Virus record (IMG/VR): IMGVR_UViG_2568526722_000001
Reading direction: 5' to 3' (one strand)
DNA length: 32,452 bases
Source: a virus
Lineage: Duplodnaviria; Heunggongvirae; Uroviricota; Caudoviricetes
The position numbers and the translations under genes are program-made. The notes under the pieces were generated by a model. That model searched no databases, was not told the DNA's origin, and saw only the letters and a list, made by a program, of their open reading frames with translations. Below, piece after piece: positions 1 through 17,600 of this stretch. Within the stretch, counting starts at the first letter, position 1. Every line of letters starts with the position of its first letter.

Positions 1-333
1 ACGGGCGTAAACCTTACGCCGGACCACCGTTCCGCCGACCAGACTCTGCAGATCTTCCGCCATCCCGGTGACCATGCCGTGCAGGTTAGAGACCGTCAGT
101 GTCGGACGGGCAGCACTGCCCTTGCCGTTCATCTCAAATCCACTCCCCTGAATGGGATAGGCCTGATACTGCCGACTCTGCCAGGTGACCGGCTCACCTT
201 TTTCATTCTGCTCATTGCAGAAAAAGTAGCGATCCCCGCCTACCTCGGTCAGGTCGATTTCCCAGAGCACCACGCTGGCCGACTGCTCCGCACGAATGCA
301 TTCATTCAGCGTTTCCTGTTGTATGTCCTGCAT
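1..333 (-). CDS. Minor tail protein L (lambda gpL-like), truncated at the window edge
   Basis: Minus-strand translation from the ATG at 333-331 reads MQDIQQETLNECIRAEQSASVVLWEIDLTEVGG..., closely matching my memory of lambda gpL. The start overlaps the stop of the upstream M gene (ATGA). The ORF runs off the window. Confidence 0.85.
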   Translation of the reverse strand, partial: MQDIQQETLNECIRAEQSASVVLWEIDLTEVGGDRYFFCNEQNEKGEPVTWQSRQYQAYPIQGSGFEMNGKGSAARPTLTVSNLHGMVTGMAEDLQSLVGGTVVRRKVYAR

Positions 334-629
334 CAGATCACCACTTCGTCAAACTGACACGAAAAATCGGTATAGGTGATATGTTCTGTCGCTGACCACG
401 TTCGACACACCACTCTGATTTTTCTGTTAATACCTGGCGGGCGCCAAAAAAAAGATTTATAGCCTTCATGCCGGGCTAAAAATTTTTCAAATGAATCACG
501 TTCATTCGCCTCAACTTTGAAATCACAGGTGAAAACGCGCAGAGAATGATTAAGTCCATTTGGACTTCGTTGCTCATAACCATCGCCAAATCTTACAGTT
601 TTTATCGATGGTTTATTTTCTGTTTTCAT
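333..629 (-). CDS. Minor tail protein M (lambda gpM-like)
   Basis: The ORF-track protein contains ...KTVRFGDGYEQRSPNGL...KSFFWRPP...QFDEVVI, resembling lambda gpM. I chose the internal ATG at 629 (MKTENKP...) because it is preceded by a GAGGA Shine-Dalgarno; the track ORF itself begins at a GTG at 671. Confidence 0.8.
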   Translation of the reverse strand: MKTENKPSIKTVRFGDGYEQRSPNGLNHSLRVFTCDFKVEANERDSFEKFLARHEGYKSFFWRPPGINRKIRVVCRTWSATEHITYTDFSCQFDEVVI

Positions 630-663
630 TCCATCCTCTGGTAACCAGTGAAATTCTTCCGTA

Positions 664-3630
664 TTAGCCACTTAACATTCCCCCATCACGTCGCATATTT
701 AACAGATTGCCCTGCACCCGCTGATCAACCATCCCCATAAGTGCTTTTATTGCCTGAGGGCCAATCTCTCCATTCTGGCCGTCATTTTGAATAGTGATTT
801 GGTATACAGGGGCATAGGTAATATCTCCGCCTCCATTACCACTTTTACTATTAATAGCTCTGACACCAAGAGAACCATCGGAAGTTCGTGTTAATGGCAT
901 AATGGCTTCCGGACCAGCCTCACCAAAAACACCAGCCCCTTTTGCAAAAGCAAAAAATTGCGGGGAATCATAAATACCGTTCGAATACATGTTCAATGAC
1001 GGAGACTCATAAACACCGCCCTTTGCATTCGGAATAAATTTACTAATAGCACTCCCGATAGTTCCTAAAATCCCCCCAGAAGAACTGTTACTAATGCTGT
1101 CGAAAATCCCAGTAATTGAAGCCTTTAATGCTATTCGACTAAGATCCGAAATCACGGAAGTAGCGAAAGAACGAAAATTTGCCTTGCCTGTCGTGACAAA
1201 ATCACCCAGCGCATCGGTCATTCCATCAAACATCTGAGTCGTGGTTGATTTTATCTGCTCACTGATATCCTTAGTGTCATCCAGCCAGTTATTGAATCCC
1301 TGGGAGGCACCACTAACCCAGTCTCCTGCCTGAATATCGAGCTGCTCGTTTTTCTGTCTGACAATGTCTTTTTCTCGTTCCAGAGCATCATTCAGAGCCT
1401 GCATTTTCTCCTGAAAAACATGATTTGACATCCCACGGGATTTATCTGCATAGTCACGTTCAAGTTGCAGACGCTGATTGTTATATTCACGTTCAATCCG
1501 CAGTAATTCCTGCTGGCGTTGCTGATTTTTATCGCCAACCCCATAACCAGCAATCTGAATATCATACCCCTGTTGACGATTATCAATCGAAGCCTGCAAT
1601 GAATCACGCCATGCAGCTATTTCGGCGGATTCCTTGATTAGCCTGTTATTTTTTTCAATCGCAACATTTTTCTCCATCAACGCGGTTATTTCTTCCCGGT
1701 GTAAGAGAAGCGATTTCTGATCCTGGGTTAATTTCGATGACGGTCGTGACTCCAGGTTGGCAATCTGCTGACGCCACTTAACCAGTTCCTGTTCAGTGGA
1801 ACTTAATTTAACGGTTAATTCAGTTTGTGAACTTAGTAACGCATTCTGTTGATTCAGATGATCAATCATTCGTTGGGCAGCATCATCCGAATAACCTTTC
1901 GCCTTTGGTTGCTTTGGATCTTTATAACGCTCATTTATTTGAGCGATAAGATTATTATATTCTTCCTTTGAATACTGACTCTTTAGCTTTTCCAGTTTTG
2001 CAAGTTCACTAGCTCTCTGCTGCTCCCGGGTCTGATATTGTTTTGAAAAGGCATCTGCTCTCTGTCTGAGTTCAATTCCTTCCTGTTGTCGCTTGTTGTA
2101 ATCGTTTATTGATGAATTTAGTACGTCCTGAGCAATTTTTTCTGCTTGAAGTGCGCCCAATTGCTGCTTTAATCGTGCCAGCCTTTTATTTTGAGCTCCG
2201 CCATCTCCAATGCCACCTAACCCGAAAACTCCGGGTCGGGTATTTTTTTCTATTTCATCAATTTGACGGAGAACATCTGAGATTTTTTGATCAAGGGAGG
2301 CCTCACGGCCAATATCCAGCATGGAATCCCATGCCCATTTTGCGGAGTCTGCGACAGCTTTCCATGCAGTCTCAAGATAACCAAGATTTTCTTTAATCTG
2401 GTTGGTGCGCTGGATCATTGAGGATGAGTATGCTTCTGTCGCAATGCGGGCGGCCTCCTGCTGGTTCCCTTCATCCTGTAGCGCCTTAATCTGGTTATAA
2501 GTCGCAATTGTCAGAAAATGGTACTGATCATTAAGTTTTGATATGGCACTGACAGGATCCTTTGCAATTTCATTGAAGTCATTAACCAGTTGTTCGGTTG
2601 ATATTCCTGTTACTTCGCTCGTTTTTACTATCGCTGTCGTCACTTGCTCCAGCGAACTGCTCGCTACCTTTCCCGAACGCACAAGCTGGTTTAATACTGC
2701 CGCCGCAGCGCCAGTTGTCGAATCAGCCGCATTCCCGGCACGTTGAGCTATATCGGCCAATTGCCCGCTGGTTGTCCCCAACTGATTTCCGGTAAGAATA
2801 AGAGATTTATTAAATTCGTCCTGCTCCTGAGAGCCTTTATAGTAAGCCAGCCCTAAGACGCCAACGGCTGCTGCGGCCAGGGTAAAAGGATTAATTAATC
2901 CCAGCACATAAGAACCAACACCTTTGATCGCCGGGCCAATCCCACCGAACATATCTTTTAGCTGGCCGCCCTGCTGCATTAACACCATAAAAGGCGACTG
3001 ACCAGTGGACAACCCAACAACAATATCCGTCATTTGTGCAGGCAACATGCGCATAGCAAAAGCCGTTTGTTTTGCCGACATTCCGGTTTTGCTTAATTGA
3101 GATTGAGTAACCTCAAGCTCACTCCGCATAGCACGAAGTTTTCCAGAAAGTTCCTCATACATTTCAGGAGAGAGCATCCCCTTAGCTTTTGCTTCATTGA
3201 GCTGTTTCTGTTGTTCTACCAGACGATTAAAAGCAGTTCCGACAGGGTCAAGTTGAGCAATCAGACGTTGCAAAGCAGCAACCTGTTCATCATGCGCTTT
3301 TGCTGCTTCTCGCTCTGCCTGAGCCTCTCCGGTAAGCTCTCGCCGTGTTTCCTGTATTTTTCGGCTATAATTCTCAAACTGAGAACCAGTAATTTTCACA
3401 TCAACAGTGCCAATATTTTGATCACCGGTATTCGGAGCTGACGGCCCCGGTACGATATCTTCGGTTTTCGCCTCAGGCGCAACTGGCGCGGTTACCGTCT
3501 GATCTTTTGCTGCGGCGTCAGCTTTTGCGTTTTTTGCTACCGCAGGGATAAAACCTACCTGCTCACGGGATACAATATCCAGGGCGGTATAAATAGTCGG
3601 GATCAACCCGGTCAGGGTATTTCCAGCCAT
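664..3630 (-). CDS. Tail tape-measure protein (lambda gpH-like) with an atypical N-terminal region of about 200 aa
   Basis: Large coiled-coil protein. The segment [41 protein letters not shown] and the C-terminus ...[16 protein letters not shown]...[10 protein letters not shown] match conserved lambda gpH blocks. Start taken as the ATG at 3630 (MAGNTLTG...) with an AAGGA upstream; the track ORF extends to 3723 but begins at a TTG. Confidence 0.85.
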
Positions 3631-3728
3631 AATTAAATATTCCTTAAAAATTTGCGTAATTGTGAATAGATGGAGTAATGAGCTATCCAGCCCTGACACC
3701 AGCTCCCATCCGGAAGCTGACAAATGTG

Positions 3729-4493
3729 TTAATCAACAATTGTGATACCGTCTTTCAATGCGTTTTGCTTACCTGCAATATCCAGTGCATCAAAAGCAGA
3801 GCGTTTCATCGTTTTCTGACCAATATCATGCTGTGTCGGACGGGAGCCGCCGCCATTGTTGCCACTGGCTTTCAGGATGTAGTCTTTCTGAGGGTAATTT
3901 TCGACGAGGAACTCCAGCGCCTCATCAAACTGCGCCAGTTCGCCAGGCTTCGCGCGGGAATAAATTTTGTTGCCGGAAGCGTCATAAGCAACGATCTTCC
4001 CTTCTTCCACTTTGAATGCCTGCCCGAAGCGGGCTTGTAATAAATCTGCCGGGATCGCAATTTTATCGGCAATATATTTTGAACCCGCAAAACTACCGCC
4101 AATCATAGAATCGTAAAGCTGCGTCTCCAGCATCTGAGAGCGTTGCTTTTCTTCATCTAATTGCTGCTGAAAATTTTTCGTAATTTCTGCCTTAACCTGG
4201 TCAACCTGTCCCGCATCGAGCAGCTTTTTCTGGTCGATTTTTGACAGCATTTCCAGTGCCTCGATCGCCTTCTTCGGGTCTTCGATAGCGGCAAACTTAG
4301 CCAGTTTTTCCTCTGCAGCTTCTTTAGCCAGGCGATGATTTTTTGCCTCGCCATTAAGCTCTGTAATTTTTTTTGTCGCCAGCGGTGCATCGAAGCCAAT
4401 TTCTTTACCATCGTCGTGCACATAAACTGGCAGGCCAGCAGTATCAATTTCTGCGTATTGTTTTCCGTTAATCTCGACCGTTTTCAGTTTCAT
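3729..4493 (-). CDS. Coiled-coil, charged phage protein, possibly a head scaffold-like protein; start uncertain
   Basis: ORF of 278 codons rich in K/E/A/Q ([30 protein letters not shown]...). It sits downstream of the head-morphogenesis gene, where scaffold genes usually lie. Candidate starts are the ATGs at 4493 and 4538 and the GTG at 4565; none has a strong ribosome-binding site. Confidence 0.4.
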
Positions 4494-4549
4494 ATTAGTA
4501 CCTGGTTTAAGTCTTCCGACAGTTACGCTGCTCACCATCCGGATCGCAG

Positions 4550-4578
4550 CAATAAAAAAGGCCACCCGAAGGTAGCCT
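4550..4578 (-). terminator. Intrinsic terminator (8-bp stem, UUCG tetraloop, U-tract) just after the head-morphogenesis gene
   Basis: Minus-strand RNA reads aggcuaccUUCGgguggccu followed by uuuuuuauu. It lies 20 nt downstream of the stop at 4598. Confidence 0.5.
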
Positions 4579-4597
4579 GTTGTAATAAATGATTTAT

Positions 4598-5713
4598 TTA
4601 AATCCCTGCTTTTCTGAATACCTGTGCATCACGCTCACGGAGCTGCTTCAGCGTCAGCCATTCGCCTTTATCGGTGTAAAATTCATCTGGCGACATACCA
4701 CCATCCCGAATCAGCTTTGCTCGGGTTTCCCCCACAATCTGTTTTTGTCTGGTGTAAGGCTGACGCAAAAACCATTCCCTGTAGGTTGTATCTCCGGCCA
4801 CCACGCCATCCATGCTGGCCCGCTCAGCCGGGGAAATATCGCGAACATCAATACCCAGTTCCTTCGCTGATTTCAGAATGAACGTTTCCGTTGAGCGGCA
4901 GCAGAAATGAATTTTTCCCGGCCCCTGCAAATAAGGCACGCTGTGACCTACAGGTTTATTATTCAGCGTATATTTGAGGCGATCCCTGATTCGACATTGT
5001 GGCGTAGTACGATTATCAAGCGTTGATAACCATTGCTTACCCTTAATCAAATCATTATTCGCGCTGGCAAAACTCTCACGGGCAGTAGCAGCAAGATGTC
5101 CAACCGCTGTTTTTGCAATGCTGGCCGCATTAGCCCGGCTCATCTGCAATGCACCATCCTGAAATCCCTTACTGACATGTCCCCGAATTTTTCTTGCGAT
5201 CTGCTCATTGGTATCCCCCAGCAAAAAACCCTGACGCACTGTATTTGTTATGCGTCTGAGCCGATCCGCCTCAAGATCTGAGGCCCACTCACTGAGCAGT
5301 CGTCCCTGGAATGGTCGCGCCATTGCAGCGGCATAAAGTGCATCAGGAGAGATACCAACCAGAGGGTGAACATCAGCAACAAAATCAGGTAGCATAGAAT
5401 CAAACAGACTTAACTGATAACCAGCCTCATAAATTGCCAGCTCGTTCAGCTCTCCGGAGAGACGGGTAAACATGCTGTTAATAGCAGCGCGGTTAACCTC
5501 TCTGACACTCGCCAGAAGTGACTCCAGGCGCGTAACGGTAAAACTACCAGGATCGAGGCTGTCCAGTGCTACCAGCAGGCGAGCTGTAAGCTCCGCATCG
5601 CTGTCATTCAGTATTTTCACCATTCTGGCAGCCACACCAGTGCTATAGCGGGATATCCAGACTGCATGAGCAATTGATTCATCACGCAGCCGTTCATTCA
5701 CGGTTTGCATCAT
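4598..5713 (-). CDS. Phage head morphogenesis protein (SPP1 gp7 / Mu gpF family)
   Basis: 371 aa with features I associate with this family (for example ...TTPQCRIRDR...), located directly downstream of the portal gene. Starts at an ATG ATG pair at 5713 and overlaps the portal stop. Confidence 0.8.
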   Translation of the reverse strand: MMQTVNERLRDESIAHAVWISRYSTGVAARMVKILNDSDAELTARLLVALDSLDPGSFTVTRLESLLASVREVNRAAINSMFTRLSGELNELAIYEAGYQLSLFDSMLPDFVADVHPLVGISPDALYAAAMARPFQGRLLSEWASDLEADRLRRITNTVRQGFLLGDTNEQIARKIRGHVSKGFQDGALQMSRANAASIAKTAVGHLAATARESFASANNDLIKGKQWLSTLDNRTTPQCRIRDRLKYTLNNKPVGHSVPYLQGPGKIHFCCRSTETFILKSAKELGIDVRDISPAERASMDGVVAGDTTYREWFLRQPYTRQKQIVGETRAKLIRDGGMSPDEFYTDKGEWLTLKQLRERDAQVFRKAGI

Positions 5714-7100
5714 TGATTTCCATCAGCATTACACTCTGATTTTTTAATTCATCGATCACTTCCTCTGGACGGGAATCCTGATCGATAAATTTCAACGCCT
5801 GCAACACCCGAACCGCATCAATCTGACGTATATCACCGCCCTGACGCAATGACTGAACAGCCAGCGCGGAGGATGAGTCAAACACCTGGGCAGATACATC
5901 CAGTTCAGTGCGCACATCCACATTGCCACCGCAACTCTCTCCGATCCATTCCGCCATTATCTGGAGAATATTATCGAGGGCATCTTCGAGGGAGTTCGCC
6001 ATTGTATAAAGCGGCGAGTTTTCCTGCATTCGCTCTTCATTAGTCTGATCAACAGATTTGGTGGATGTATTTTCAGCACGCAGAAGTTTAGCGCCGGCAT
6101 GACGCATCTGATTTTCCAGCTTCTCAAGTGATGTTTCGCCAGATTCTATCGCTGCGCCACTATGTTCAACATATTCGAGGCCATTTTTTGTTCTGTCCTC
6201 AAAAATCGTAGCGGTGGATGCACCAACCGTCAGTTCTTCATTCCTGTCCAGCCCGTAGGCCACCAGCAATGGAACGCGGGCAACATGAAGAATATTGTCC
6301 TGCTCGCTCTGGCTTTGCCAGTGCTTGATATTCAGCAAGCCAAGATTAAGCAATGGCGGTGTACCACGCATAAATCCTGTTTTCTTCGTGTACAGTGTTA
6401 CCAGAGGAATATCATCACGGCTGGTATTCCATGACTCATGAAGCGTCCAGACAGATTCGCCATTAGTGCCTTCGCTACGTCGATAAATTTCAACTCGACG
6501 GGGCATAATATGGCGGATCTGCTCCACCTTCTTCTGCCCGAAATCATCACCATCAATAATGATGACCTCTTTTATACGCAAATCAGTGAGAACAACTTTC
6601 CCTTTTTCAACTTTCGATTTCCATCCAATAACCTGGCGTGGATTCAGCATCGTAACGTACGGACGACCACCGGCCGCGTTTTCATCGGCTTTTGTCCGAA
6701 TCTCTTTCATATCCGTTCGTGGATAGTCCACCAGCGCATGTGCCACACCATACTGAAATGCGAGGCTGAAAAATTGCTGCGCCCACACATCCAGTCGGCT
6801 CCCCTCCATGTCGATATTTTCTGCATATTCCCTGATTTTTGCCGGCGTTTCCTCACTCAATACTGTCGGCTCTGCAAATATGCGCCCAATATTTTGCTTG
6901 ATGCTTTCTTCATACACAGGAAGTAGCGTAGCCACAGACAGGCGTTTTTTATAAGCGTCTTCATCTTCGTTAGGCCATTTTGGGAGATAATTTTCCCCCT
7001 GCCTGCGCATTTCAAGCGTACCGCCCATCAGTGCGTCGTTAATATCCCACGCCTCCAGCATATCGTTATAGTCGAGGTTGGGTGTTGATATATCAGCCAT
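5694..7100 (-). CDS. Portal protein
   Basis: 468-aa ORF immediately downstream of the large terminase subunit and upstream of the head-morphogenesis gene. Size and position are typical for a portal protein; ATG start confirmed at 7100. Confidence 0.7.
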   Translation of the reverse strand: MADISTPNLDYNDMLEAWDINDALMGGTLEMRRQGENYLPKWPNEDEDAYKKRLSVATLLPVYEESIKQNIGRIFAEPTVLSEETPAKIREYAENIDMEGSRLDVWAQQFFSLAFQYGVAHALVDYPRTDMKEIRTKADENAAGGRPYVTMLNPRQVIGWKSKVEKGKVVLTDLRIKEVIIIDGDDFGQKKVEQIRHIMPRRVEIYRRSEGTNGESVWTLHESWNTSRDDIPLVTLYTKKTGFMRGTPPLLNLGLLNIKHWQSQSEQDNILHVARVPLLVAYGLDRNEELTVGASTATIFEDRTKNGLEYVEHSGAAIESGETSLEKLENQMRHAGAKLLRAENTSTKSVDQTNEERMQENSPLYTMANSLEDALDNILQIMAEWIGESCGGNVDVRTELDVSAQVFDSSSALAVQSLRQGGDIRQIDAVRVLQALKFIDQDSRPEEVIDELKNQSVMLMEINDANRE

Positions 7101-7102
7101 AA

Positions 7103-8404
7103 TTAAATCCGAAGTGATGTGACTCTTCCGGTCGGTTTGACAATAGGGAATTGCTTAACGATGAAATAACCTCCGGCATCATTCGGGTGATCATTGCCAG
7201 ATTTTTTATCAGGCTCCCCCTTCTCATCCCAGACCTGTTGCTCCAGAGATTCGGCATATAACGGGCAACGCTTCACATTAACTTTATAGCGACGCTCACC
7301 ATTGGCATTGCAGAACATTGCATTCATTGAGTTAACGCGATCTTTTACTGGCGGGTTCGAGCTGTTCACCACAACGTTAAAACCAGCCTGCTTAAGCTGG
7401 GCTATATCCGTCGTACTTGCGTTACTTGATTTTCTGGAATCCCCGGAAGCATCTGGATAAATATAAATTTCCCTCACTTTCCGGTAATCATTCCCATCAT
7501 ACAGCCAGAAGCGTTCTTTAATGATGCGGATCATATCCGGCGTATCGTAGGCATTGATGATTTCAGTTACCGCACATGGAAGCCCCAAACGCAGCACATG
7601 GACGATTCCCGCCATCTTTCCAACGTTAAAATCCATCCCAATATAAATCGGCTCCCCTGGCTGCTCCACTTCTTCGCAATTATTCAGTTTCCGGTCAAAC
7701 TGATGGTAAACAGTACCACTTGTCAGGTTAGTAAACTGTCCTCGCAGATAGGCTTTAATCAGCTCTGGAGGGTATGATTCAAGAAGCGAAGGAATGTAAT
7801 CTGCTGGCAGGTTCTTTTCATTATCGAAAGTAGATGCCTGCACCAGACCATACAGTGAGGCCAGCTCTGTTTTTTCACGCACGGCTTTAACAAACTGCTC
7901 GTAGACAAATTTGAATCCTTCCGGCGTGGTTGTAACGTCAATACCGTTGCGAAGTCCATCAATCTTATAACGCATACGCGCAATTATCTTGCGCCACGCC
8001 GTTCTGGCTTTTTCCTTCGGCAAAATGTCCAGTTCATCCACCAACGCATTACCAATTTTGAAACCGACGATCGTTTGTGGCTTCTCCATCGATCTGCAGA
8101 TAGTGGTTCCCCGATACTGGCGTCCGTAATAAAAGTGAACCTCTTTATTTCCCTCATTAATTTTTACGTTCAATCCCCAGTCAGCAGCAACTTCTTCCAC
8201 TGTAGGGTAAAAAATATCGCGAATTTGGGGATACGTTGGCGCAAAATATCCCTGATTTATACCTGGATGCTCCCAAATCCCCTTGCATATGCCGCCACAC
8301 CCAACCCATGTTTTGCCCGAGCCAAAACCAGCAATATAGGCTTTAAATTTATGGGGCATTGAAAGAAATCGCGCCTGAGGCACATTAAGCGTCGGAGAGA
8401 TCAT
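7103..8404 (-). CDS. Terminase large subunit
   Basis: Walker A motif (AGFGSGKTW) near the N-terminus and a size of about 433 aa. The ATG at 8404 has an AAGGAG Shine-Dalgarno with 8-nt spacing; the track ORF begins at a GTG at 8413. Confidence 0.85.
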   Translation of the reverse strand: MISPTLNVPQARFLSMPHKFKAYIAGFGSGKTWVGCGGICKGIWEHPGINQGYFAPTYPQIRDIFYPTVEEVAADWGLNVKINEGNKEVHFYYGRQYRGTTICRSMEKPQTIVGFKIGNALVDELDILPKEKARTAWRKIIARMRYKIDGLRNGIDVTTTPEGFKFVYEQFVKAVREKTELASLYGLVQASTFDNEKNLPADYIPSLLESYPPELIKAYLRGQFTNLTSGTVYHQFDRKLNNCEEVEQPGEPIYIGMDFNVGKMAGIVHVLRLGLPCAVTEIINAYDTPDMIRIIKERFWLYDGNDYRKVREIYIYPDASGDSRKSSNASTTDIAQLKQAGFNVVVNSSNPPVKDRVNSMNAMFCNANGERRYKVNVKRCPLYAESLEQQVWDEKGEPDKKSGNDHPNDAGGYFIVKQFPIVKPTGRVTSLRI

Positions 8405-9479
8405 CTTCATCACTCCTTACTCTGGCATCAACCACATTAATATTGATCGCCACAGGCTGGGGATGTTCATTATCTTCCACCGTTTCGATCTCTTTGCGCA
8501 GCTTCTGGTTTTCCATTCTGCGCCGTTCAATTTCCAGTTCCTGTAGCCGCTTATCTGCACATAAAGCCCCGCCAGCAGAAAGCAAACGCAACAATTCACG
8601 CCGGGCGGCAGCCTTATCCTCCAGCAGGATCTCAACGCCGAATTTTCCGAATTTTGCCCCTGCATATAATTGCCGCGCATCCCCATCAAGCAGAGTGGTA
8701 TCAGCCATATAAAGCTGTCCCGTTCCCTCACCGCAGCACTTCGGGCAGTCCGGATTGGGTATGGCGTTATCAACAAAGCCGAGGCCTCCATATTCCGGTT
8801 CGGGTTTGCCATCTCTGGAAGCCTGCGCCGCTGCCTTGTCGAATTCTGCTATATCGCGCCACTGGTAGAGATGATTCTCGCCCCAGCAATAACGGCAGTT
8901 AACACGGCGAAATTGTGCAAGCTGATTGGGGTCGGCCAGGACAATGGCCATCAACTGACTCACTAGTAAATCCAGGTCTGCGGTATAGCGTTTCTGGTAC
9001 TGATTGCGGAAGTAGCTGATAGCGCGAAAAACCCTGGCATTTCTAAGCATACGACTGGCGTTGCTGTTAGCTGTCGCACCTTGCCCCTCATAACCGGCTA
9101 GTCGGTACGCCTCTGTCGGCTTTTTACCCTGAGCAACAAGCATCGCAAACTTAGCCTGCTGGTCAGAAATGCCGAATTCATCGGGACAGAACGAAAATTC
9201 CTCCGCGTCGCCCTCATTCAGGCCCGCATCGAATACTGGCTTTTTTTCCTGAGATTTTTCGTTCCGCTTTTGTGCAGTCTGCGCAGATTTTTTCTGCGCA
9301 CTTTTTTGCGCAGTTTTGCGCATTTCTGTCTGCGCATTTTTCGGAGTTTTTTTGATGTAACGACGGGCTGTTGCGTAATTCAGTCCCCTTGCTTCACACC
9401 ATGCCACCGGAGATATACCGGAGCGGGTGTATTCAGCAATATACTCCTGCTGCAACGCCCCCCAGTCCGGTCTGCTCAT
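8385..9479 (-). CDS. Terminase small subunit-like DNA-binding protein
   Basis: 364-aa ORF directly upstream of and overlapping the large terminase. It has an N-terminal HTH-like region, a lysine/alanine/glutamine-rich repeat and an acidic C-terminus. ATG at 9479 with an AGGA Shine-Dalgarno. Confidence 0.6.
   Translation of the reverse strand: MSRPDWGALQQEYIAEYTRSGISPVAWCEARGLNYATARRYIKKTPKNAQTEMRKTAQKSAQKKSAQTAQKRNEKSQEKKPVFDAGLNEGDAEEFSFCPDEFGISDQQAKFAMLVAQGKKPTEAYRLAGYEGQGATANSNASRMLRNARVFRAISYFRNQYQKRYTADLDLLVSQLMAIVLADPNQLAQFRRVNCRYCWGENHLYQWRDIAEFDKAAAQASRDGKPEPEYGGLGFVDNAIPNPDCPKCCGEGTGQLYMADTTLLDGDARQLYAGAKFGKFGVEILLEDKAAARRELLRLLSAGGALCADKRLQELEIERRRMENQKLRKEIETVEDNEHPQPVAININVVDARVRSDEDDLSDA
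9280..9336. repeat. Five phased TGCGCA hexamers each followed by a T-tract (candidate pac or terminase-binding site)
   Basis: TGCGCA occurs at 9280, 9295, 9307, 9317 and 9331, each followed by 3-6 T residues. The array lies inside the small terminase gene and encodes the AQK-type protein repeats. Confidence 0.5.
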
Positions 9480-9482
9480 CAG

Positions 9483-9734
9483 TTAGTCCTGATTTTTATC
9501 CACCCTGAGTAGTTCGCGCAGAGCAAAGGCATCCCCTTTTCTGGCAAGCTTAAACAATGCCGCTCGTAACTCGGCTTCACCTTTCGCTCTGCCCTTACGG
9601 ATGGCCGCATAAAAATCTGTCATTGCTTCCCGATTTTCTTTCAGTCGGTTCAGATCAACATCCAGAACGTCAGCGATTTGTTGTGCAGTCATCCGGCACG
9701 CTGCCAGAGACTCGACTTTCGAATACGGAATCAT
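9483..9734 (-). CDS. Small putative DNA-binding protein of 83 aa upstream of the terminase genes
   Basis: ATG at 9734 preceded by GGGGGTGA. The stop lies 3 nt before the small terminase start. The 5' end overlaps the upstream gene by about 65 nt, so the start is uncertain. Confidence 0.45.
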   Translation of the reverse strand: MIPYSKVESLAACRMTAQQIADVLDVDLNRLKENREAMTDFYAAIRKGRAKGEAELRAALFKLARKGDAFALRELLRVDKNQD

Positions 9735-10602
9735 TTGTCACCCCCATTGATATGCAGGGTGTCTTCTTCCTGTATTTTTCGTGAAGGATTTTTACTGCAG
9801 CGTTGTTCCAGGTGACCTGATGGTGAATGCGTTTATGGCTGGCACCCATCAGTGAAATTTTTACGCACGACGGCGCATACATGACGGAGTAAAAACTTTT
9901 AACGTAGGTTCCGGAATCCAGATACAGCTCGGTCATTCCGCCGCTGTTTTTCTGCGTCTGTTTCTGCCCTAACTGGACAGCACCGATCGTCATAAACAAT
10001 TCACCACAGCGACCGAGATTCGTGTACGTATTCACATCCTCGTTAATGCGCCCCATGAATGAGAACGGTCGATCAACCGAACAGATAAAGCTGTTCATTG
10101 CCTTGCGTTTCACCCACGAAGCATGGCCGCCATTGTCACCAAGAAAATCCCCGCCCTGCGACATAGCGATGGAAAGAGCAGGTATTGATTCGTAGTACGC
10201 CAGCATTTCAGAAAGGATCGCATCCAGTTTCCTTATCGGAAAATAGGCCTGGTCATAGTTGCGATCCACCCGAAACTGGAACTCGTGATAATCATCATCG
10301 AGCTGAATGAAGTATTTACACCCGACCAGTTTTGCCAGGTCGAAACAGGCATTACGGGCGTAAAAAATTGAGCGGCGGTCACAGAAATTATCGGCTTCGT
10401 CAAAACGACTGGCGATATCGGCTTTGGAAAACACCAGCACCTGTTCACCAAATTCAGCCATGTACTGATGCCGTGTCTTATCTTCATCATCAACAACGAT
10501 AAAAATTTTCCCGGTATAGCCAGCACGACGCAACGTCCGGTAAGTCAGAACTTTGTCCGGTCGCCCGTGAGTCAGAATAAAGGCGCAAAAATCATCACGC
10601 AT
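9670..10602 (-). CDS. DxD-motif protein, possibly a nucleotide-sugar transferase-like enzyme (intact counterpart of the K-12 Rac ydaY remnant?)
   Basis: Start taken at the ATG at 10602, which has a strong GGAGGAGG Shine-Dalgarno and overlaps the ParB-like stop (ATGCGTGA). Contains IVVDDED and QLDDDYHEF motifs. The functional call is an inference from these motifs only. Confidence 0.45.
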   Translation of the reverse strand: MRDDFCAFILTHGRPDKVLTYRTLRRAGYTGKIFIVVDDEDKTRHQYMAEFGEQVLVFSKADIASRFDEADNFCDRRSIFYARNACFDLAKLVGCKYFIQLDDDYHEFQFRVDRNYDQAYFPIRKLDAILSEMLAYYESIPALSIAMSQGGDFLGDNGGHASWVKRKAMNSFICSVDRPFSFMGRINEDVNTYTNLGRCGELFMTIGAVQLGQKQTQKNSGGMTELYLDSGTYVKSFYSVMYAPSCVKISLMGASHKRIHHQVTWNNAAVKILHEKYRKKTPCISMGVTNDSVFESRVSGSVPDDCTTNR

Positions 10603-11386
10603 ATTCCTCCTCCTCACCACCATGCATGATCTCCACCATGCGCTGCGTCATCCGGACAAATCCATTTTCAATAGCCTGCTGATAATCAATGATCACCAGC
10701 GCCGACTCCTCGAAAAAACACTGAATTTCAGAGGGGGCGTGAGCGTAATAGTCCGCAATTCTGCTGAAATTAAACACCGTGTGACGTTCTGCCGCACACA
10801 GGAGGAATTTCTCAATATCAGGCTCAAGGGACGCCGAACGTATCCGGCTGATCAGCTCCTGAGTTTTCGTATCGTCGTACAGTTCACTGATATCCGGTTT
10901 ACCGCCCGACGGCTCATAAACAGGCGTATCAATTTTCGTCGTATACGGCTCCTCCTCATTTCCTGTACCGGGCAAAACATCCGTCAACAGTTCATCAATT
11001 TCTGTCGGGATGAAGCCTGTCAGGGAGACATCAAAATCAGCATTGATTAGGTCCGACAGCTCCATCCGCAACAGATCTTCATCCCAGCCAGCATTCATCG
11101 GCAGGCGATTATCTGCCAGGCGGTACGCCTTTTTCTGCTCCTCCGTCAGGCCAGACAGAACAATGACCGGAACAGAATCCATTTTGAGCATTTCAGCCGC
11201 CATAACACGACCGTGACCCGCAATAATTTCGCCCTTTTCGTCAATCAGCACCGGATTAGTCCAGCCGAATTGCTTAATACTTTCTACCAGTTGTGCCACC
11301 TGCTCAGTACTGTGCGTCCTGGCGTTGTGCGCATACGGTGACAATTCTTGTAATGGGCGATAGACTATCTTTAATTTCTCGCTCAT
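10595..11386 (-). CDS. ParB-like nuclease domain protein (full-length counterpart of K-12 Rac ynaK)
   Basis: The N-terminal region (YRPLQELSPYAHNARTHSTEQVAQLVESIKQFGWTNPVLID...GHGRVMAA) has the ParB/Srx-like signature. ATG at 11386 with an AAGG upstream. Confidence 0.7.
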   Translation of the reverse strand: MSEKLKIVYRPLQELSPYAHNARTHSTEQVAQLVESIKQFGWTNPVLIDEKGEIIAGHGRVMAAEMLKMDSVPVIVLSGLTEEQKKAYRLADNRLPMNAGWDEDLLRMELSDLINADFDVSLTGFIPTEIDELLTDVLPGTGNEEEPYTTKIDTPVYEPSGGKPDISELYDDTKTQELISRIRSASLEPDIEKFLLCAAERHTVFNFSRIADYYAHAPSEIQCFFEESALVIIDYQQAIENGFVRMTQRMVEIMHGGEEEEYA

Positions 11387-11523
11387 ACAGCCTTGCTTTA
11401 TGAATAAAACGCACCCCAGCAGCCAGTGCTACTGGGGGCGGAGGTGTTGCTGGTAAAGTTAGGTATTGGATCAATGAGTGAGTCAATATAATATTAAACT
11501 CACAATTATAAATCAGCCATATA

Positions 11524-12981
11524 TTAGGAGCGCCAAAAAAAACCTGAAAACAATATAATAACAGGATAAATTTCAAGGCGACCAAGAATCATAGCTATGC
11601 ACATTAAATATTTTGCAATGTCATTAAGCACTCCGAATGACGATGCAGTAGCCCCAAAACCTAATCCCATATTATTAATACATGCAGCCACTGTTGCAAA
11701 TGATGTAAGAAAATCATATCCCATACCATTTAACACCAGTATAAAAAACACCGTGAAGAGAGTATAAAGAAAAAAGAAACTCCATACAGACCTCATTACA
11801 CGATCTGTAACTATCTTCCCTCCTACATTTACACTCAACAACGCTCTGGGATGAGAAAGCTGATTTATCTCGTGTTTGCTTTGTTTGAAAAGTATAAGAA
11901 ATCGAAGTGACTTAATTCCACCACAAGTTGAACCTATACATCCCCCAAAGAAACTTGACGACAGCAAAAACACTATCGTGTGCGTGGGCCAGTTTGCATA
12001 ATCCTGCGTAGCTAAACCATTATCAGTGAGCATGGAGCTGGCAAGAAAAAACGAATGAATAAAACTTCCATGCAAGTCATACATACCTATATGCCAGACC
12101 TGGAAAGAGGTAACAATGATCACCCCTAAGGCTATTAACAGAAAGAAACGAAGTTCAATATCTCTGATTAAAGGTTTTATCGTTTTCCTGCTAATAACAA
12201 TATACCAAAGAGTGAAGTTGAAAGCCGATAGCAGGGAAAAAGAACCAGCCACCAGCTCAACCAAATAGTTATTAAAATATCCGATACTCTCGCTATGAGT
12301 TGAGAAACCACCAAGCGAAACTGTGGAAATCCCGTGACAAATAGCATCAAACAAAGGCATTCCTGCAAGTCTATAACAGACAATACAAGCAATACCTAAT
12401 AAAGAATAAGTTATCCACAGTGTCCGTGACGTATCGGCCAGGCGGGGAGTGAGTTTGTCATCCTTAAATGGCCCCGGCATTTCTGACTGATAAAGCTTTG
12501 CACCACCAATACCCAATAATGGCAATACAGCAACCGCCAGAACAATAACTCCTAAACCACCTATAAAATTTAACTGTGACCGATAGTACAAATATGCCCG
12601 AGGTAATGAACTAACATCATCAATTACAGTTGCTCCTGTTGTTGTTATTCCAGAAACCCCTTCAAACAGAGCATCAATGAACGTTAAATTAAGTTCTGAG
12701 TCAATCCATAAAGGGAATGCACTAATAACAGAAAACAAAATCCAAAACATTACAATTATAATAAACCCATCACGGGTACGTAATTGAATGCCAGATTTCT
12801 TAGTTGTATACCACGCTCCGCCACCAATGCAAAAAAATATAACGAAAGTTATAAAGAAAACGAACAGGCTTTTTTCTTTATAAAACAATGCTACAACCAT
12901 TGGTGGCAACATTGAAAGACTATAGAGCCAAACCAGGAACCCACACATATGAGTAACAACTCTTACATGAGATGTATTCAT
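11524..12981 (-). CDS. trkG: Potassium uptake protein TrkG
   Basis: 485-aa polytopic membrane protein from MNTSHVRVV..., matching my memory of the Rac prophage TrkG from E. coli K-12. The gene is visibly AT-rich compared with its neighbours. Confidence 0.9.
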   Translation of the reverse strand: MNTSHVRVVTHMCGFLVWLYSLSMLPPMVVALFYKEKSLFVFFITFVIFFCIGGGAWYTTKKSGIQLRTRDGFIIIVMFWILFSVISAFPLWIDSELNLTFIDALFEGVSGITTTGATVIDDVSSLPRAYLYYRSQLNFIGGLGVIVLAVAVLPLLGIGGAKLYQSEMPGPFKDDKLTPRLADTSRTLWITYSLLGIACIVCYRLAGMPLFDAICHGISTVSLGGFSTHSESIGYFNNYLVELVAGSFSLLSAFNFTLWYIVISRKTIKPLIRDIELRFFLLIALGVIIVTSFQVWHIGMYDLHGSFIHSFFLASSMLTDNGLATQDYANWPTHTIVFLLSSSFFGGCIGSTCGGIKSLRFLILFKQSKHEINQLSHPRALLSVNVGGKIVTDRVMRSVWSFFFLYTLFTVFFILVLNGMGYDFLTSFATVAACINNMGLGFGATASSFGVLNDIAKYLMCIAMILGRLEIYPVIILFSGFFWRS

Positions 12982-13118
12982 ATCTAAATATTCTTTCAAT
13001 TATAACCACCTTGCTGCAATATTATGATTATACTGTATAAAATTTAACTCCTCTTAGATCTTACTTCACTGTTCCTTATGAAACAATCATCAAAATGAAT
13101 CATATTGTAGTTAAGATT

Positions 13119-13583
13119 TTACTTTAAACACTGCTCGGTTATGTATTGCTGAGCACCTTCAAGTTGGGCCTGCATCATTACCAGTCGTTCCCGGAGGGTG
13201 AAATAATCCCGTTCAGCGGTGTCTGCCAGTCGGGGGGAGGCTGCATTATCCACGCCGGAGGCGGTGGTGGCTTCACGCACTGACTGACAGACTGCTTTGA
13301 TGTGCAACCGACGACGACCAGCGGCAACATCATCACGCAGAGCATCATTTTCAGCTTTCGCATCAGCTAACTCCTTCGTGTATTTTGCATCGAGCGCAGC
13401 AACATCACGCTGACGCATCTGCATGTCAGTAATTGCCGCGTTCGCCAGCTTCAGTTCTCTGGCATTTTTGTCGCGCTGTTCTTTGTAGGCGATGGCGTTA
13501 TCACGGTAATGATTAACACCCCATGACAGGCAGACGACGATGCAGATAACCAGAGCGGAGATAATCGCGGTTACTCTGCTCAT
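13119..13583 (-). CDS. rzpR: Rz i-spanin (intact lambda Rz homologue)
   Basis: [55 protein letters not shown]... is near-identical to lambda Rz as I remember it. The start overlaps the endolysin stop. Confidence 0.9.
13178..13363 (-). CDS. rzoR: Rz1 o-spanin lipoprotein, embedded in the +1 frame of Rz
   Basis: [61 protein letters not shown] has a signal peptide with a lipobox cysteine and a proline-rich body. It is near-identical to lambda Rz1. Confidence 0.85.
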
Positions 13584-14056
13584 ACCTCAATCTCTCTGAC
13601 CGTTCCGCCAGCTTCTTTGAATTTTGCAATCAGACTGTCAGCCTTATGCTCGAACTGACCATAACCAGCGCCCGGCAGTGAAGCCCATATATTGCTGCAA
13701 CGGTCGATAGCCTGACGGATATCACCGCGATCAATCATCGGCAAAGCGCCACGCTCTTTAATCTGCTGCAGCGCTACAGCATCCTGACTTTCTGGAGAAA
13801 AATCTTTCAGGCCAAGTTGCTTGCGGTAGGCATCCCACCAGCGTGAAAGAAGCTGGTAACGTCCAGCGGCTGTTGATTTGAGTTTCGGATTTAGCGTGAC
13901 AAGTTTGCGGGGGTGATCGGAGTAATCAGTGAACAGTTCGCCACCGACAATAACATCATAACCGTGATTTCTGGTTTTCTGCCGTCCGTTATCTGTTCCT
14001 TCTGACCATGCCACCATATCAAGGAAAGCTTTACGCTGGGAATTAAGTGTCTGCAT
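13580..14056 (-). CDS. Endolysin (lambda R-like lytic transglycosylase)
   Basis: 158-aa protein: [62 protein letters not shown]... is near-identical to lambda R. AAGGAG Shine-Dalgarno 6 nt before the ATG. Confidence 0.9.
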
Positions 14057-14059
14057 TAA

Positions 14060-14401
14060 TTACTCCTTATGGGCACCGAACTTGTTACCGATGACCCTCA
14101 TTGCCGCACCACGAATAGCATCAACACCAATCAGCCCCACCCCACCACCAATGGCAACAGAAAGTGATTTAGGCCATCCGACATACTCAAGCGCGGATGC
14201 AAAGGTCAGCGTCAGAGCACCACAAAGCAGAATCTCAAGCGTTTTTCGTTTCCAGCCGCCGCCACCGCCAAAATAGGCAATGCGCAAACCAGCCATAATA
14301 ATTGACATAACCACTGCACCCAGCGGCGTATCTCCACGCCACCAACTTTGTAAGAGTTCCAGTAAGTCAGGCCAGGAATGAGGGGCATTGTGCATTTTCA
14401 T
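14060..14401 (-). CDS. Holin (class I-like) with an M-K-M dual-start motif
   Basis: Lies immediately upstream of the endolysin and has three predicted transmembrane segments. GGAGG sits 8 nt before the ATG at 14401, and a second in-frame ATG lies two codons later (MKMHNAP...), as in lambda S107/S105. The track ORF begins at a GTG at 14410. Confidence 0.7.
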   Translation of the reverse strand: MKMHNAPHSWPDLLELLQSWWRGDTPLGAVVMSIIMAGLRIAYFGGGGGWKRKTLEILLCGALTLTFASALEYVGWPKSLSVAIGGGVGLIGVDAIRGAAMRVIGNKFGAHKE

Positions 14402-14494
14402 AAGCCTCACCTCCGAGAGTTCGGATGGTGCTAAGTGTAAGATTCAGGCTCTCAGGCTTGCTAACAAGAAGTCGAGGATGTTTCCGGAGCCTAA

Positions 14495-14524
14495 CAACGA
14501 AAAAGCCCCGGGACATGCCGGGGC
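14495..14524 (-). terminator. Intrinsic terminator between the moron gene and the holin
   Basis: GC-rich 7-bp stem (gccccgg / ccggggc) with a 6-nt loop. On the minus strand the hairpin is followed by uuuucguugu. Confidence 0.5.
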
Positions 14525-14618
14525 CAGATGGAGTGCCAGATTAAGCTTCTGGCGGTATATACTCGTGTTTGATATCGTTAAATCGCCAAAAGTAACAATT
14601 CAAACAAAGAGGATTTTT

Positions 14619-14780
14619 ATGTCTGAAAAAAACAAACCACAAGGTGAAAATAAACCTCAGCACCCCGTGGCACCAAAACCAACTCCAACACAAAGTACTA
14701 CAGACTTTGCTACACGTCGTGTTTTTGTTGGAGATTCTGCCGACTCAGTCATTGAACATATAAAAAAACAGCCGAGATAA
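14619..14780 (+). CDS. Small hypothetical protein of 53 aa
   Basis: The ATG at 14619 is preceded by AAGAGG. The product MSEKNKPQGENKPQHPVAPKPTPTQSTTDFATRRVFVGDSADSVIEHIKKQPR is proline/lysine-rich with no recognisable domain. It converges on and overlaps the 3' end of the moron gene. Confidence 0.3.
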   Translation: MSEKNKPQGENKPQHPVAPKPTPTQSTTDFATRRVFVGDSADSVIEHIKKQPR

Positions 14781-15318
14781 ACATCGCCGCTACCGGAGCA
14801 AGGATGGTATACATCCTTGCTTTATCGAGACTCGTGCGGATTTTCTCATTTTCCAACAGTAACTCTCTTGCTGTATCACTCAAGTCAACAAGGCGATACC
14901 TTCGTATAAGCGGCAATAACTTATCAGGTCCTAAATATCCTGCATCAGCGAATATTTTAAAGCTCGAGGGCTCCATATCCTTATATTTTTCATGATATAG
15001 ATGATCAGGAGGGGCATTGATCAGGCCCCTAACCTTCACAGATAAACCAGTACATACCAAGTAAATGGCGCACCATGTCCATAGTAATGTAAATGTGGTA
15101 ATTCCGGCGGTGAGAAAATCGAAATTAGTTTTCTGTGTCAGCAATAAAAAAGATGAACCAATTCCAACAATCTGAATGTTCAGAAGTTTGTATCCATTCT
15201 CAACATTGGTTTTGTTAGAAAGATGAATCTCTCGTATCGTCTCTTCCCCTTGTTTTTCAAGATAATCGACGAGCTCATCATCTACTCCTAAAAAATAATC
15301 TTTAGGTAGTTCTCTCAT
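14749..15318 (-). CDS. Uncharacterised membrane protein (moron between Q and the lysis cassette)
   Basis: ATG at 15318 with a strong GGAGGTGAG Shine-Dalgarno. The 189-aa product has a cytoplasmic-looking N-terminal domain, then hydrophobic segments (FLLLTQKTNFDFLTAGITTFTLLWTWCAIYLVC and MYTILAPVAAMFISAVFLYVQ). The gene is AT-rich. Confidence 0.55.
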   Translation of the reverse strand: MRELPKDYFLGVDDELVDYLEKQGEETIREIHLSNKTNVENGYKLLNIQIVGIGSSFLLLTQKTNFDFLTAGITTFTLLWTWCAIYLVCTGLSVKVRGLINAPPDHLYHEKYKDMEPSSFKIFADAGYLGPDKLLPLIRRYRLVDLSDTARELLLENEKIRTSLDKARMYTILAPVAAMFISAVFLYVQ

Positions 15319-15426
15319 CTCACCTCCACATCCTGTACTGAAAACAATTTTACCAGAATGTCTCGATTCTAGGTATTCCGCCAGGAATCGCGCTCCAGAA
15401 ATGAAACATCAGGTTCGCCAGTACCA

Positions 15427-15456
15427 GAAACAACAAAACCCGCTCAATGGCGGGTT
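15427..15456 (-). terminator. Intrinsic terminator downstream of Q (tR'-like)
   Basis: Hairpin aacccgc / gcgggtt with a 6-nt loop, followed on the minus strand by uuguuguuucugg. It lies about 85-115 nt downstream of the Q stop. Confidence 0.5.
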
Positions 15457-15539
15457 CTGGTAAAGTTCATGCGCTTGGTTCGCCTCGCGATACAGCTTTG
15501 CGAAGCATACCGGAATTGAAGCAGTTTATGCGTAAAAAA
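15457..15539 (-). promoter_or_regulatory. Candidate late promoter (pR'-like) and Q-utilisation region
   Basis: Positional inference only: the interval between the Q stop and the tR'-like terminator. The minus strand contains TTGATT, then 17 nt, then TTCAAT as a weak -35/-10 candidate. Confidence 0.3.
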
Positions 15540-16082
15540 TCAAGCTATTTTTTGAGCAAATGATTCTCGCATGGGAATATATAGGGCATACTCAGCAACA
15601 GCCAACCAATTAGCAATTCGCTTTTCGCATGTGCTAAAACACCACTCAGGATGTGCATCATTTAGCAATTCAGCCATTTTGCGCTTAGTCATCCCCCGTC
15701 CTTCATACCGTTGCCGGAGGACACTAATCAATCCAGGATGCTCTGCCAGCACCTCACTTATGACTCTATCAATACATAACGCCTCTGCATCAGTACAATG
15801 CGCCAGCCAGGTCTTTTGCTTGCCATTGATCATCTCTCGCAAAAACGCTTCCAGCTCAGGTTTCTCTATTCCCGCTTTTTTCATCCTGCGCAGGGCTTCA
15901 TTGACGGCTGTTTTCGTCAATTTTTTGGATGCCAGCAACTGGTTAAACATATTTCCCGTCTTACCGCCGCCAATATACGACCAGCGCCCCCACATGCGCA
16001 GTTTTCCCTGAATCCAGACACTTTCCAGCGTGGTGAGACGAAGGTGTTCCCCGCTTTTGCCTGTATTTGTTGGGTAAATCAT
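15540..16082 (-). CDS. Late-gene antiterminator Q
   Basis: The protein (MIYPTNTGKSGEHLRLTTLESVWIQGKLRMWGRWSYIGGGKTG...) resembles lambdoid Q antiterminators. It lies upstream of the lysis genes. The ATG at 16082 overlaps the upstream stop (ATGA) and has GAAGG at -6. Confidence 0.75.
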   Translation of the reverse strand: MIYPTNTGKSGEHLRLTTLESVWIQGKLRMWGRWSYIGGGKTGNMFNQLLASKKLTKTAVNEALRRMKKAGIEKPELEAFLREMINGKQKTWLAHCTDAEALCIDRVISEVLAEHPGLISVLRQRYEGRGMTKRKMAELLNDAHPEWCFSTCEKRIANWLAVAEYALYIPMRESFAQKIA

Positions 16083-16369
16083 AAATAACCTTCCTTTCTC
16101 CAGATTTCTTGTGTGCGAAAAACACCTTCTGCATGCATCAGGCGTAATTCTTCTTTGGTGTAATCGCTGGTTTTTACCCGCCCGTCGATTAAATCGTGGC
16201 ATGAGCTACAGGCAATCGCTGCCTGCATATCGTGTGGTTTTGTCACTGTTCCGCACGTCCCCGCCAGCCTGTAATGCGCCAGCACAGATGTTTCGGGATT
16301 GTGATTGCAGTAGCCAGGAATTCTGACGGTGCACATCTGCCCCCGCGCCGCTTTACGTAAATCCACCAT
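16079..16369 (-). CDS. YbcO-like protein (DUF1364; putative nuclease of the nin region)
   Basis: 96 aa: MVDLRKAARGQMCTVRIPGYCNHNPETSVLAHYRLAGTCGTVTKPHDMQAAIACSSCHDLIDGR... This has the same length and cysteine pattern as DLP12 YbcO. Confidence 0.7.
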   Translation of the reverse strand: MVDLRKAARGQMCTVRIPGYCNHNPETSVLAHYRLAGTCGTVTKPHDMQAAIACSSCHDLIDGRVKTSDYTKEELRLMHAEGVFRTQEIWRKEGYL

Positions 16370-16968
16370 TACGCAAACTCCAGCAGCTGCGCGGCCACAT
16401 TTTCGACTTGTTCCGGAGAGGAAAATTTACGGAACAGAATCCAGTTCCACAGCACATTCAGAACAGATTTATAAACCTGCTGAAACTCGGTTTCGTCCAT
16501 ATTCGCAAAAGCGATAGATTTTGCCCGACGCCCGCGGCTACCGTCCGGATAAAAATGTTCGGTGTAAAATCCAGCCTGAATGGTTACCCACTCGCGAAAA
16601 GCCTCAAACGACTTTAGCAATGCCGTATCCCGGGTTCTGCGTGTCGCAACTGTATTCAGATATTGCTCTGCGGCATCACTCAGGGCTGGCGTGTGTTCCC
16701 GACCAACTGATTCGCACAGGTAATCAACGAAACCAGACAGCAGTTCTCGTTCGCGAGGCGTGATCGCCCCACCGACCGGAGTCCAGTAATCGAATCCCAG
16801 TTGCAGGAGTTTGAAAAAACGCTTGTGGAATGCGTAGTTACGCACACGCTTAAAGTCTGCGTGTATCCACTCGCCTATTTTGATTTGATGCAGAAAATCA
16901 CAACTCTCCGGCGTCGCCGGGAGAAGTAATCCGGAAGAGGTTTGTTTGACCAGTTGTATATGCGCCAT
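16369..16968 (-). CDS. nin-region protein (DUF1367-like)
   Basis: 199-aa ORF with a confirmed ATG, immediately upstream of the YbcO-like gene with a TAA/ATG junction. The family assignment is from memory of the typical DUF1367-DUF1364 gene pair. Confidence 0.5.
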   Translation of the reverse strand: MAHIQLVKQTSSGLLLPATPESCDFLHQIKIGEWIHADFKRVRNYAFHKRFFKLLQLGFDYWTPVGGAITPRERELLSGFVDYLCESVGREHTPALSDAAEQYLNTVATRRTRDTALLKSFEAFREWVTIQAGFYTEHFYPDGSRGRRAKSIAFANMDETEFQQVYKSVLNVLWNWILFRKFSSPEQVENVAAQLLEFA

Positions 16969-17240
16969 TTCTTAATCTCTCGATGGCGCAGCGCAGCAGA
17001 TGCCAGTTGTTCAGGCTGACGTATGAAGTATAAATAAACTGGCTCCAGTGTAAAGCCCCACCTTAATGGAATAAAAACCAAACAACAGATTGCTGGGATA
17101 CAAACAACGCTTATTATTAAAAGCGGTTAAACAAATTAAATTTTAATGTTATGCAAATCTGCCAGATCACCATAATATCTCATTTAAAAACCGCTGAAAT
17201 AACAACCCTATTAGGGTTAATCATATTAAGGTGAGTAAAT

Positions 17241-17327
17241 ATGGAAAACAACAAATCTGCACATTACGTTCCTTTTTTATCTGTAATACTTTTTGTTTTA
17301 TGCTGTGCGTGGGCATTATTTTTATAA
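17241..17327 (+). CDS. Candidate small hydrophobic peptide of 28 aa
   Basis: ATG preceded by AAGGTGAG at -7. The product MENNKSAHYVPFLSVILFVLCCAWALFL would be a single transmembrane helix. It converges on the hok-like gene. Confidence 0.25.
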   Translation: MENNKSAHYVPFLSVILFVLCCAWALFL

Positions 17328-17433
17328 AAATATTCACAGATAAAATATACCCGCCAAAGTTGGTTAAGTGCGGGTGCGTTGAGGATGCCTGACTCATCAG
17401 AGGTGGCGAGGGATTTCTCCCTCGCCTGGTCTC

Positions 17434-17586
17434 TCACTCCTCAGGTTCGTAAGCTGTGAAGACAGCGACCTCCGTCTGACCGGTTCGGATTTGTACCTCG
17501 CAGAAGTCTTTCCTTGTTACCAGTGCCATCACAACGACGGTAATACAGATGACAATCAGGGCGATTAACATCGTCTTTTGCTGCAT
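17434..17586 (-). CDS. hok: Hok/Gef-family type I toxin
   Basis: The 50-aa product MQQKTMLIALIVICITVVVMALVTRKDFCEVQIRTGQTEVAVFTAYEPEE is highly similar to HokC(Gef) and HokD(RelF) as I remember them. A perfect 8-bp stem hairpin (ggcgaggg / ccctcgcc) follows the stop at about 17405-17427. Confidence 0.8.
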   Translation of the reverse strand: MQQKTMLIALIVICITVVVMALVTRKDFCEVQIRTGQTEVAVFTAYEPEE

Positions 17587-17600
17587 CACAGCCTACTTAC

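Follow-up and report, generated by a model that had tools for sequence, protein, structure and literature searches.

Decay of prophages by deletion, leading to "grounded" or domesticated defective elements, has been reviewed before (PMC6379469), and defective prophages have been described as gene donors acting via Rad52-like recombinases (PMC3945230). In the general decay model, structural genes are lost, while accessory and recombination genes are kept. A described case is the Rac prophage of E. coli K-12 MG1655 (NC_000913.3, 1411899–1434958), which is defective because virion genes have been lost. Here, we analyzed a stretch of 32,452 nucleotides (IMG/VR virus record IMGVR_UViG_2568526722_000001; hereafter the window), corresponding to positions 2–32453 of scaffold KI535406.1 from E. 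coli BIDMC 37. Judged by its early and accessory gene set and its trkG cargo, the element is a Rac-family lambdoid prophage. It has intR, xisR, rcbA, ralR/RalA, recT, recE, racC, kilR, sieB, replication genes, and trkG in common with K-12 Rac, to which 12.3 kb of the window align with 93–99.6% identity. The near-identical F5 prophage is annotated with intR, xisR, rcbA, ralR, recT, recE, racC, ydaE, kilR, sieB, racR, and trkG. The window itself has a TrkH Pfam match and contains the RalA antitoxin sRNA (30718–30896, minus strand; Rfam RF02694, 218 bits), which lies antisense to the ralR/rcbA region as it does in K-12 Rac. The integrase stop codon marks the end of the window; in relatives, int adjoins ttcA. 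As detailed below, we consider it highly probable that one deletion by illegitimate recombination removed 5146 bp from the late operon of this Rac-family prophage, so that codon 81 of the major capsid gene is now followed by codon 171 of the tape-measure gene.

For comparison, we used the prophage loci of 13E0767 (NZ_CP020107.1; L001) and F5 (NZ_CP195955.1; L004), and the record ON470595.1 (L006). The original prediction, made from the sequence alone, had proposed a deletion or recombination joint at 3630–4598, between the head-morphogenesis gene and the tape-measure gene. Alignment to intact relatives indeed revealed two collinear blocks separated by a missing segment; however, the joint is located at 3387|3388, inside the tape-measure open reading frame (ORF) and 243 bases outside the proposed interval. 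In blastn comparisons with F5, positions 1–3397 matched with 99.94% identity (2 mismatches in 3397 bases) and positions 3388–13582 with 99.75% (26 in 10195), both ungapped and both within one prophage, 5146 bp apart. The same pattern was obtained for 13E0767, where positions 1–3397 aligned to L001 5464–8860 (97.5% identity, tail side) and positions 3388–12000 to L001 14001–22613 (99.5%, head side), again ungapped and with a gap of 5150 bp. When positions 3000–5800 were compared to 5426 complete E. coli genomes by megablast, 1201 genomes matched, and every top match ended at 3388, within a gene annotated as "P22 phage major capsid protein family protein". The alignment blocks overlap at 3388–3397, for which the coding strand reads GAAAATTACT on the capsid side and GAAAATAAAT on the tape-measure side, with eight of the ten bases matching. 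In a three-way alignment, the coding strand of the capsid gene continues as ...GATGTGAAAATTACT|AAATCC..., that of the tape-measure gene as ...TCCGGGAAAATAAAT|GGTTCT..., and that of the window as ...GATGTGAAAATTACT|GGTTCT..., so that the parent switches abruptly at the joint. Strict homology at the crossover amounts to 1 bp, the final T only, so that the recombination was illegitimate, at the level of microhomology.

The resulting ORF (664–3630, minus strand, ATG at 3630) encodes 988 amino acids and is composed of two parts. Positions 3388–3630 hold the remnant of a P22-coat family major capsid gene (codons 1–81 of 379; phrog_283), and positions 664–3387 hold codons 171–1077 and the stop codon of the tape-measure gene (PF06791, PF24622, PF09718, and phrog_24), which follow in frame. 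Residues 1–81 (...VDVKIT) do not differ from the F5 capsid protein, and neither do residues 82–988 (GSQFENY...) from residues 171–1077 of the F5 tape-measure protein. The fusion uses the start codon and the ribosome-binding site of the capsid gene (AAGGAA, 9 nt before the ATG), the latter being read from a native 98-bp intergenic region (3631–3728, minus strand) within the 99.75% ungapped F5 alignment. Profile searches gave a matching picture. The profile of phrog_283 ("major head protein") matched residues 3–107 to its positions 2–104 of 385 (1.5e-22), and tape-measure PHROG profiles began only at residue ~58–76. Tape-measure domains were recovered with TMP_2 (2.7e-82), TMP_4 (5.5e-23), Tape_meas_lam_C (1.8e-27), and TIGR01541 (3.1e-64). 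All domains of a lambda gpH-type tape measure (TMP_2, TMP_4, and Tape_meas_lam_C; TIGR01541) thus reside in the C-terminal 907 residues, whereas the native first 170 of 1077 residues are replaced by 81 capsid residues. Judging from these alignments, the 988-aa protein is a chimera and not a natural variant of a tape-measure protein. It had been noticed earlier that roughly the first 200 residues do not resemble gpH; this unfamiliar stretch consists of the foreign residues 1–81 and of residues 82 to ~178, which belong to the native N-proximal region of the tape-measure protein and are also found in intact relatives. In the intact capsid protein, the P22_CoatProtein match (PF11651) covers residues 105–241, and the 81-aa remnant has no Pfam match. 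A functional capsid protein, which would have spoken against a defective element, is therefore provided neither by the N-terminus of the fusion, with only 81 of 379 capsid residues and no P22_CoatProtein region, nor by the neighboring DUF6651 ORF, which is scaffold-like and not a capsid gene.

The segment missing relative to F5 (F5 locus coordinates 30236–35381; positions 1471735–1476880 of F5) comprises capsid residues 82–379, including the sole Pfam P22_CoatProtein region, a 58-aa protein (phrog_1514), the head–tail adaptor Ad1 (phrog_493), the head closure protein Hc1 (phrog_161), the Neck1/tail completion protein (phrog_169), the tail terminator (phrog_179, PF13554), the tail tube (PF18906), the tail assembly chaperone YdaY (phrog_313) together with a small downstream ORF, and tape-measure residues 1–170. 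According to our survey of genes and domains, no capsid, connector, tube, or chaperone gene is present between the MuF-like head-morphogenesis gene and the tape-measure ORF. The gene order described by the original prediction (MuF-like gene, hairpin, one ORF, tape-measure ORF) and its set of missing genes were thereby confirmed. A crossover between the capsid and tape-measure genes would have removed the capsid body, connectors, tube, and chaperone in one event, and the 988-aa chimera would have arisen as a mere by-product, to be produced each time the late operon is transcribed. As virion genes considered essential are gone relative to the intact relatives, the gene content agrees with the earlier view that the prophage is unable to build virions; we predict that it cannot make capsids or tails by itself and is a defective ("grounded") prophage. 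It may still excise, recombine (RecET), replicate, and lyse. A further observation concerns the F5 counterpart of the lost region. The F5 ydaY gene (L004 34042–34720 region) ends with a slippery heptamer, A AAA AAG, at L004 34389, and is overlapped downstream by a long ORF of ~100 aa, which contains an annotated 41-aa gene and lies in frame +1/−2 to ydaY. The −1 frame of ydaY is open for only ~34 codons, so the frameshift geometry in this one relative would be unusual for a G/GT-type pair.

The comparison with K-12 Rac reveals a different history. Relative to an F5-type genome, K-12 Rac has three deletions (F5 locus 10404–20066, 22491–34049, and 35807–44258), which remove Q and the lysis genes, the region from ParB' through the tube gene, and the region from the tape-measure C-terminus through J, respectively. 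The window, with one 5.1-kb deletion, differs from K-12 Rac in keeping the lysis genes, the ParB-like gene, the TAGT gene, both terminase subunits, portal, and MuF, as well as the scaffold gene and the distal tape-measure and tail genes. Since the breakpoints differ, the deletion events are independent. The likeness to K-12 Rac pointed out before thus holds insofar as the element itself belongs to the Rac family and is defective, but the lesion is a separate one. The deletion represents ordinary prophage decay in a known family. It is the same in kind as the general model, and can be regarded as an early stage of the process, with one lesion identifiable in the visible part. The intact F5 and 13E0767 prophages have the same late-gene order, with hairpin, DUF6651 gene, and capsid start identical to the window, and carry the capsid-to-tape-measure segment of 5146 and 5150 bp, respectively, that is absent from the window; compared to the window, both are mosaic in their early regions and moron cargo.

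We considered whether the joint could have arisen in other ways. An assembler might have wrongly joined the capsid and tape-measure genes of a module that is in reality intact, and both the position of the locus less than 3.4 kb from the scaffold end and the repetition of lambdoid tail genes in E. coli genomes (median of two places per genome) would fit such an error. However, the joint is interior to the contig, its strict homology of 1 bp (8/10 imperfect) is far below any assembler k-mer, the NCBI scaffold and a Logan contig give an identical joint, and the missing segment is single-copy in relatives (median of one place per genome; at least 80% of the segment was found in 706 of the 5426 complete genomes). 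We therefore regard a misassembly as very unlikely. Much the same can be said of a hybrid between two different resident lambdoid prophages, formed with a chromosomal rearrangement and not by deletion within one element. Here, the tail side being more diverged from 13E0767 than the head side and the occurrence of tape-measure-like sequence at several places per genome would be in line with such an origin. Yet, F5 and 2024CK-00188 match both flanks at ~100% in one prophage, with order and orientation preserved and 5.1 kb in between, and the unequal divergence from 13E0767 reflects the ordinary mosaicism of that relative. Because both flanks are collinear with one prophage, recombination between prophages is unnecessary, and a single deletion is most parsimonious; we give the hybrid origin little credence.

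A further explanation does not dispute the deletion but its meaning. The in-frame chimera could be a selected functional protein, for example, a decoy by which superinfecting Rac-type phages are poisoned in their head or tail assembly, and it is true that the fusion is in frame, that native start and ribosome-binding site were kept, and that the scaffold, portal, and terminase genes remained intact. An in-frame join, however, is expected by chance in about one of three cases, neither spread nor later sequence change of the fusion is apparent, and the joint occurs in one clone. In the complete E. coli genomes, a 301-bp probe spanning the joint matched 1151 records, none at ≥80% coverage and none above 52%. 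An exact 33-base joint probe had no matches in GTDB species-representative genomes, IMG/VR, or JGI metagenomes, a search with low power for strain variation within E. coli. The exact fusion protein is recorded in one NCBI contig (two samples) and one Logan contig (four samples), and the fusion is confined to a small clone. Selection for the chimera is, in our estimation, extremely unlikely. Just as hard to credit is a dominant-negative decoy function, in which the chimera, expressed from the translation signals of the capsid gene, would act on Rac-type or lambdoid phages during superinfection by engaging the scaffold/portal or the tail-tip complex; if it did, the deletion would be selectively useful and not merely neutral decay.

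A single deletion within the late operon thus remains our explanation, and the state of the surrounding genes bears on its age. The trkG, ParB-like, TAGT, both terminase subunit, portal, MuF, DUF6651, and gpM genes have no internal stops or frameshifts, and TAGT, a 69-aa ORF, the large terminase subunit, portal, MuF, DUF6651, and gpM are identical to F5 on the protein level. As the retained late genes are intact, many of them protein-identical to F5, and the joint is absent from complete genomes, the deletion appears to be recent. The Logan assembly of SRR850816 contains the same 988-aa protein and joint, and matches the window without differences over 13.6 kb.

Several observations nevertheless weigh against the reading of a deletion in an otherwise virion-forming prophage. 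SRR850816 may represent reads of the same isolate, in which case the assembly is independent but the strain is not. The joint is known from assemblies and not from reads, so that heteroplasmy or a library artefact is possible. The tail-tip genes are not visible, as the window stops in gene L at the scaffold end: window position 1 is scaffold position 2, the prophage leaves the scaffold within this gene, and K, I, J, Lom, and the side tail fibre genes fall outside the visible scaffold sequence. That the intact form makes virions is deduced from its gene content and its conservation in ~700 genomes, and a search of the phage collection INPHARED yielded no isolated, plaque-forming phage carrying this head module; the ten matching records are predicted prophage regions. 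We had considered these records as evidence of a virion-forming intact type, but rejected them, as ON470595 has host flanks from abgT through ttcA. The matching series stems from a study that located prophages in clinical isolates. Records named "Escherichia phage vB_EcoS-...R.." are partial prophage predictions with kilobases of host genes and not isolated phages.

Regarding annotation, ESL42253.1 is named "lambda family phage tail tape measure protein" in GenBank, although it is a capsid–tape-measure chimera, and tools relying on gene content would score the prophage as largely complete, although particles could not be formed by it alone. With a single lesion, a near-identical intact parent, and intact neighbors, the locus offers a clean case of an event that may be the first to inactivate a prophage in the course of its decay. 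Its importance beyond annotation is small.

The late genes of this region are all located on the minus strand. The genes for the small terminase subunit (8385–9479), the large terminase subunit (7103–8404), and a DUF4055 portal protein (5694–7100; Pfam and PHROG) are followed by an intact gene for a 370-aa minor head or head-morphogenesis protein of the Mu F/SPP1 gp7 type (4598–5710; PF04233, Phage_Mu_F, 1.3e-8; phrog_241, 6.5e-183). This MuF-like protein is identical to its F5 homologue and free of internal stops. Downstream lie a 104-bp spacer (4494–4597), the DUF6651 gene, the intergenic region preceding the capsid start, and the fusion ORF, and then the intact gene for a lambda gpM-like minor tail protein (333–671; PF05939, 1.2e-31), identical to the F5 protein. 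The 5' part of the gene for minor tail protein L (1–333), assigned from gene maps including F5, is cut by the scaffold end.

Within the spacer, a pattern scan identified a terminator-like hairpin (4578..4551, minus strand), which reads AGGCUACC-UUCG-GGUGGCCU followed by UUUUUUAUU. With a stem of 8 bp including five GC pairs, a UUCG loop, and the U tract UUUUUUAUU, it has the sequence features of a Rho-independent terminator. Folded alone, the 34-nt hairpin reached −13.8 kcal/mol (z = −4.07), and none of 200 shuffled sequences folded as well; for the 71 nt around it, the z-score was unremarkable (−1.5). A strong UUCG-loop terminator had previously been counted among the signs of a joint. Such a hairpin does exist, but the exact 30-mer also occurs in the intact relatives 13E0767 and F5, and a role as the mark of a recombination scar was rejected, as it is base-for-base the same there. 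We infer that it is a normal internal terminator or mRNA-stabilizing element of this phage family. In lambda late transcription, Q-modified RNA polymerase reads through terminators (lambdoid Q antitermination), and the hairpin is probably read through in the same manner inside the late operon.

The gene between the hairpin and the capsid start (3729–4493, minus strand, ATG at 4493) encodes an intact 254-aa DUF6651 protein (PF20356, 1.8e-61). The 278-codon ORF reported earlier for this position (3729–4565, GTG start) turned out to be an artefact of the ORF list, and its supposed lack of a good ribosome-binding site does not apply to the real gene, as AGGT is located six bases upstream of the ATG. 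A degraded capsid or chaperone gene was also considered for this ORF and rejected on the basis of Pfam, PHROG, and F5 identity, which reveal the intact DUF6651 gene. The protein has no amino-acid differences from the annotated F5 protein. Its best PHROG match, phrog_784 (5e-126), has no assigned function, and a weaker match was obtained for phrog_206, "head scaffolding protein" (1.7e-22). In intact relatives, the capsid gene follows immediately downstream. The product is a probable head scaffolding protein. Neither this protein nor the intact capsid protein had more than chance-level matches to PDB sequences, and a search of NCBIfam gave no match for the DUF6651 protein. Both the hairpin and the DUF6651 gene occur unaltered in intact relatives and thus lie outside the deletion scar.

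Other parts of the window vary between the relatives. At 17735–20628, two overlapping genes are encoded on the plus strand, opposite to the phage genes. The first encodes a 609-aa ABC/OLD-type AAA_21/AAA_15 ATPase (PADLOC HEC-04, 1.7e-34; ATPase-Toprim_I-B, AriA/PtuA-like), and the second a 354-aa C5 cytosine DNA methyltransferase (PF00145, 5e-61). The same slot contains a hypothetical protein and a nucleoid-associated protein in F5, and an FtsH-like protein and an S8 peptidase in 683R6, so it looks like a variable defence or moron hotspot. The holin/endolysin region (13580–15318) is a different allele without a DNA match to F5, and two ORFs of 158 and 189 aa within it had no match in Pfam or NCBIfam. 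A scan for tRNA genes found none in the window, of which 13600–17400 was compared to L004 18430–18583; in F5 and 683R6, the genes for tRNA-Thr and tRNA-Gly are found in the stretch from the Q-like gene to the lysis genes. Immediately before the terminase genes (9670–11386, minus strand), the window encodes a ParB/Srx-N protein of 263 aa, the N-terminus of which matches PADLOC MTase_II (8e-39), followed by TAGT, a TET-associated glycosyltransferase family protein (PF20691, 3.8e-35). Both may form a DNA-modification pair, and K-12 ynaK is a truncated remnant of the ParB/Srx-N gene.

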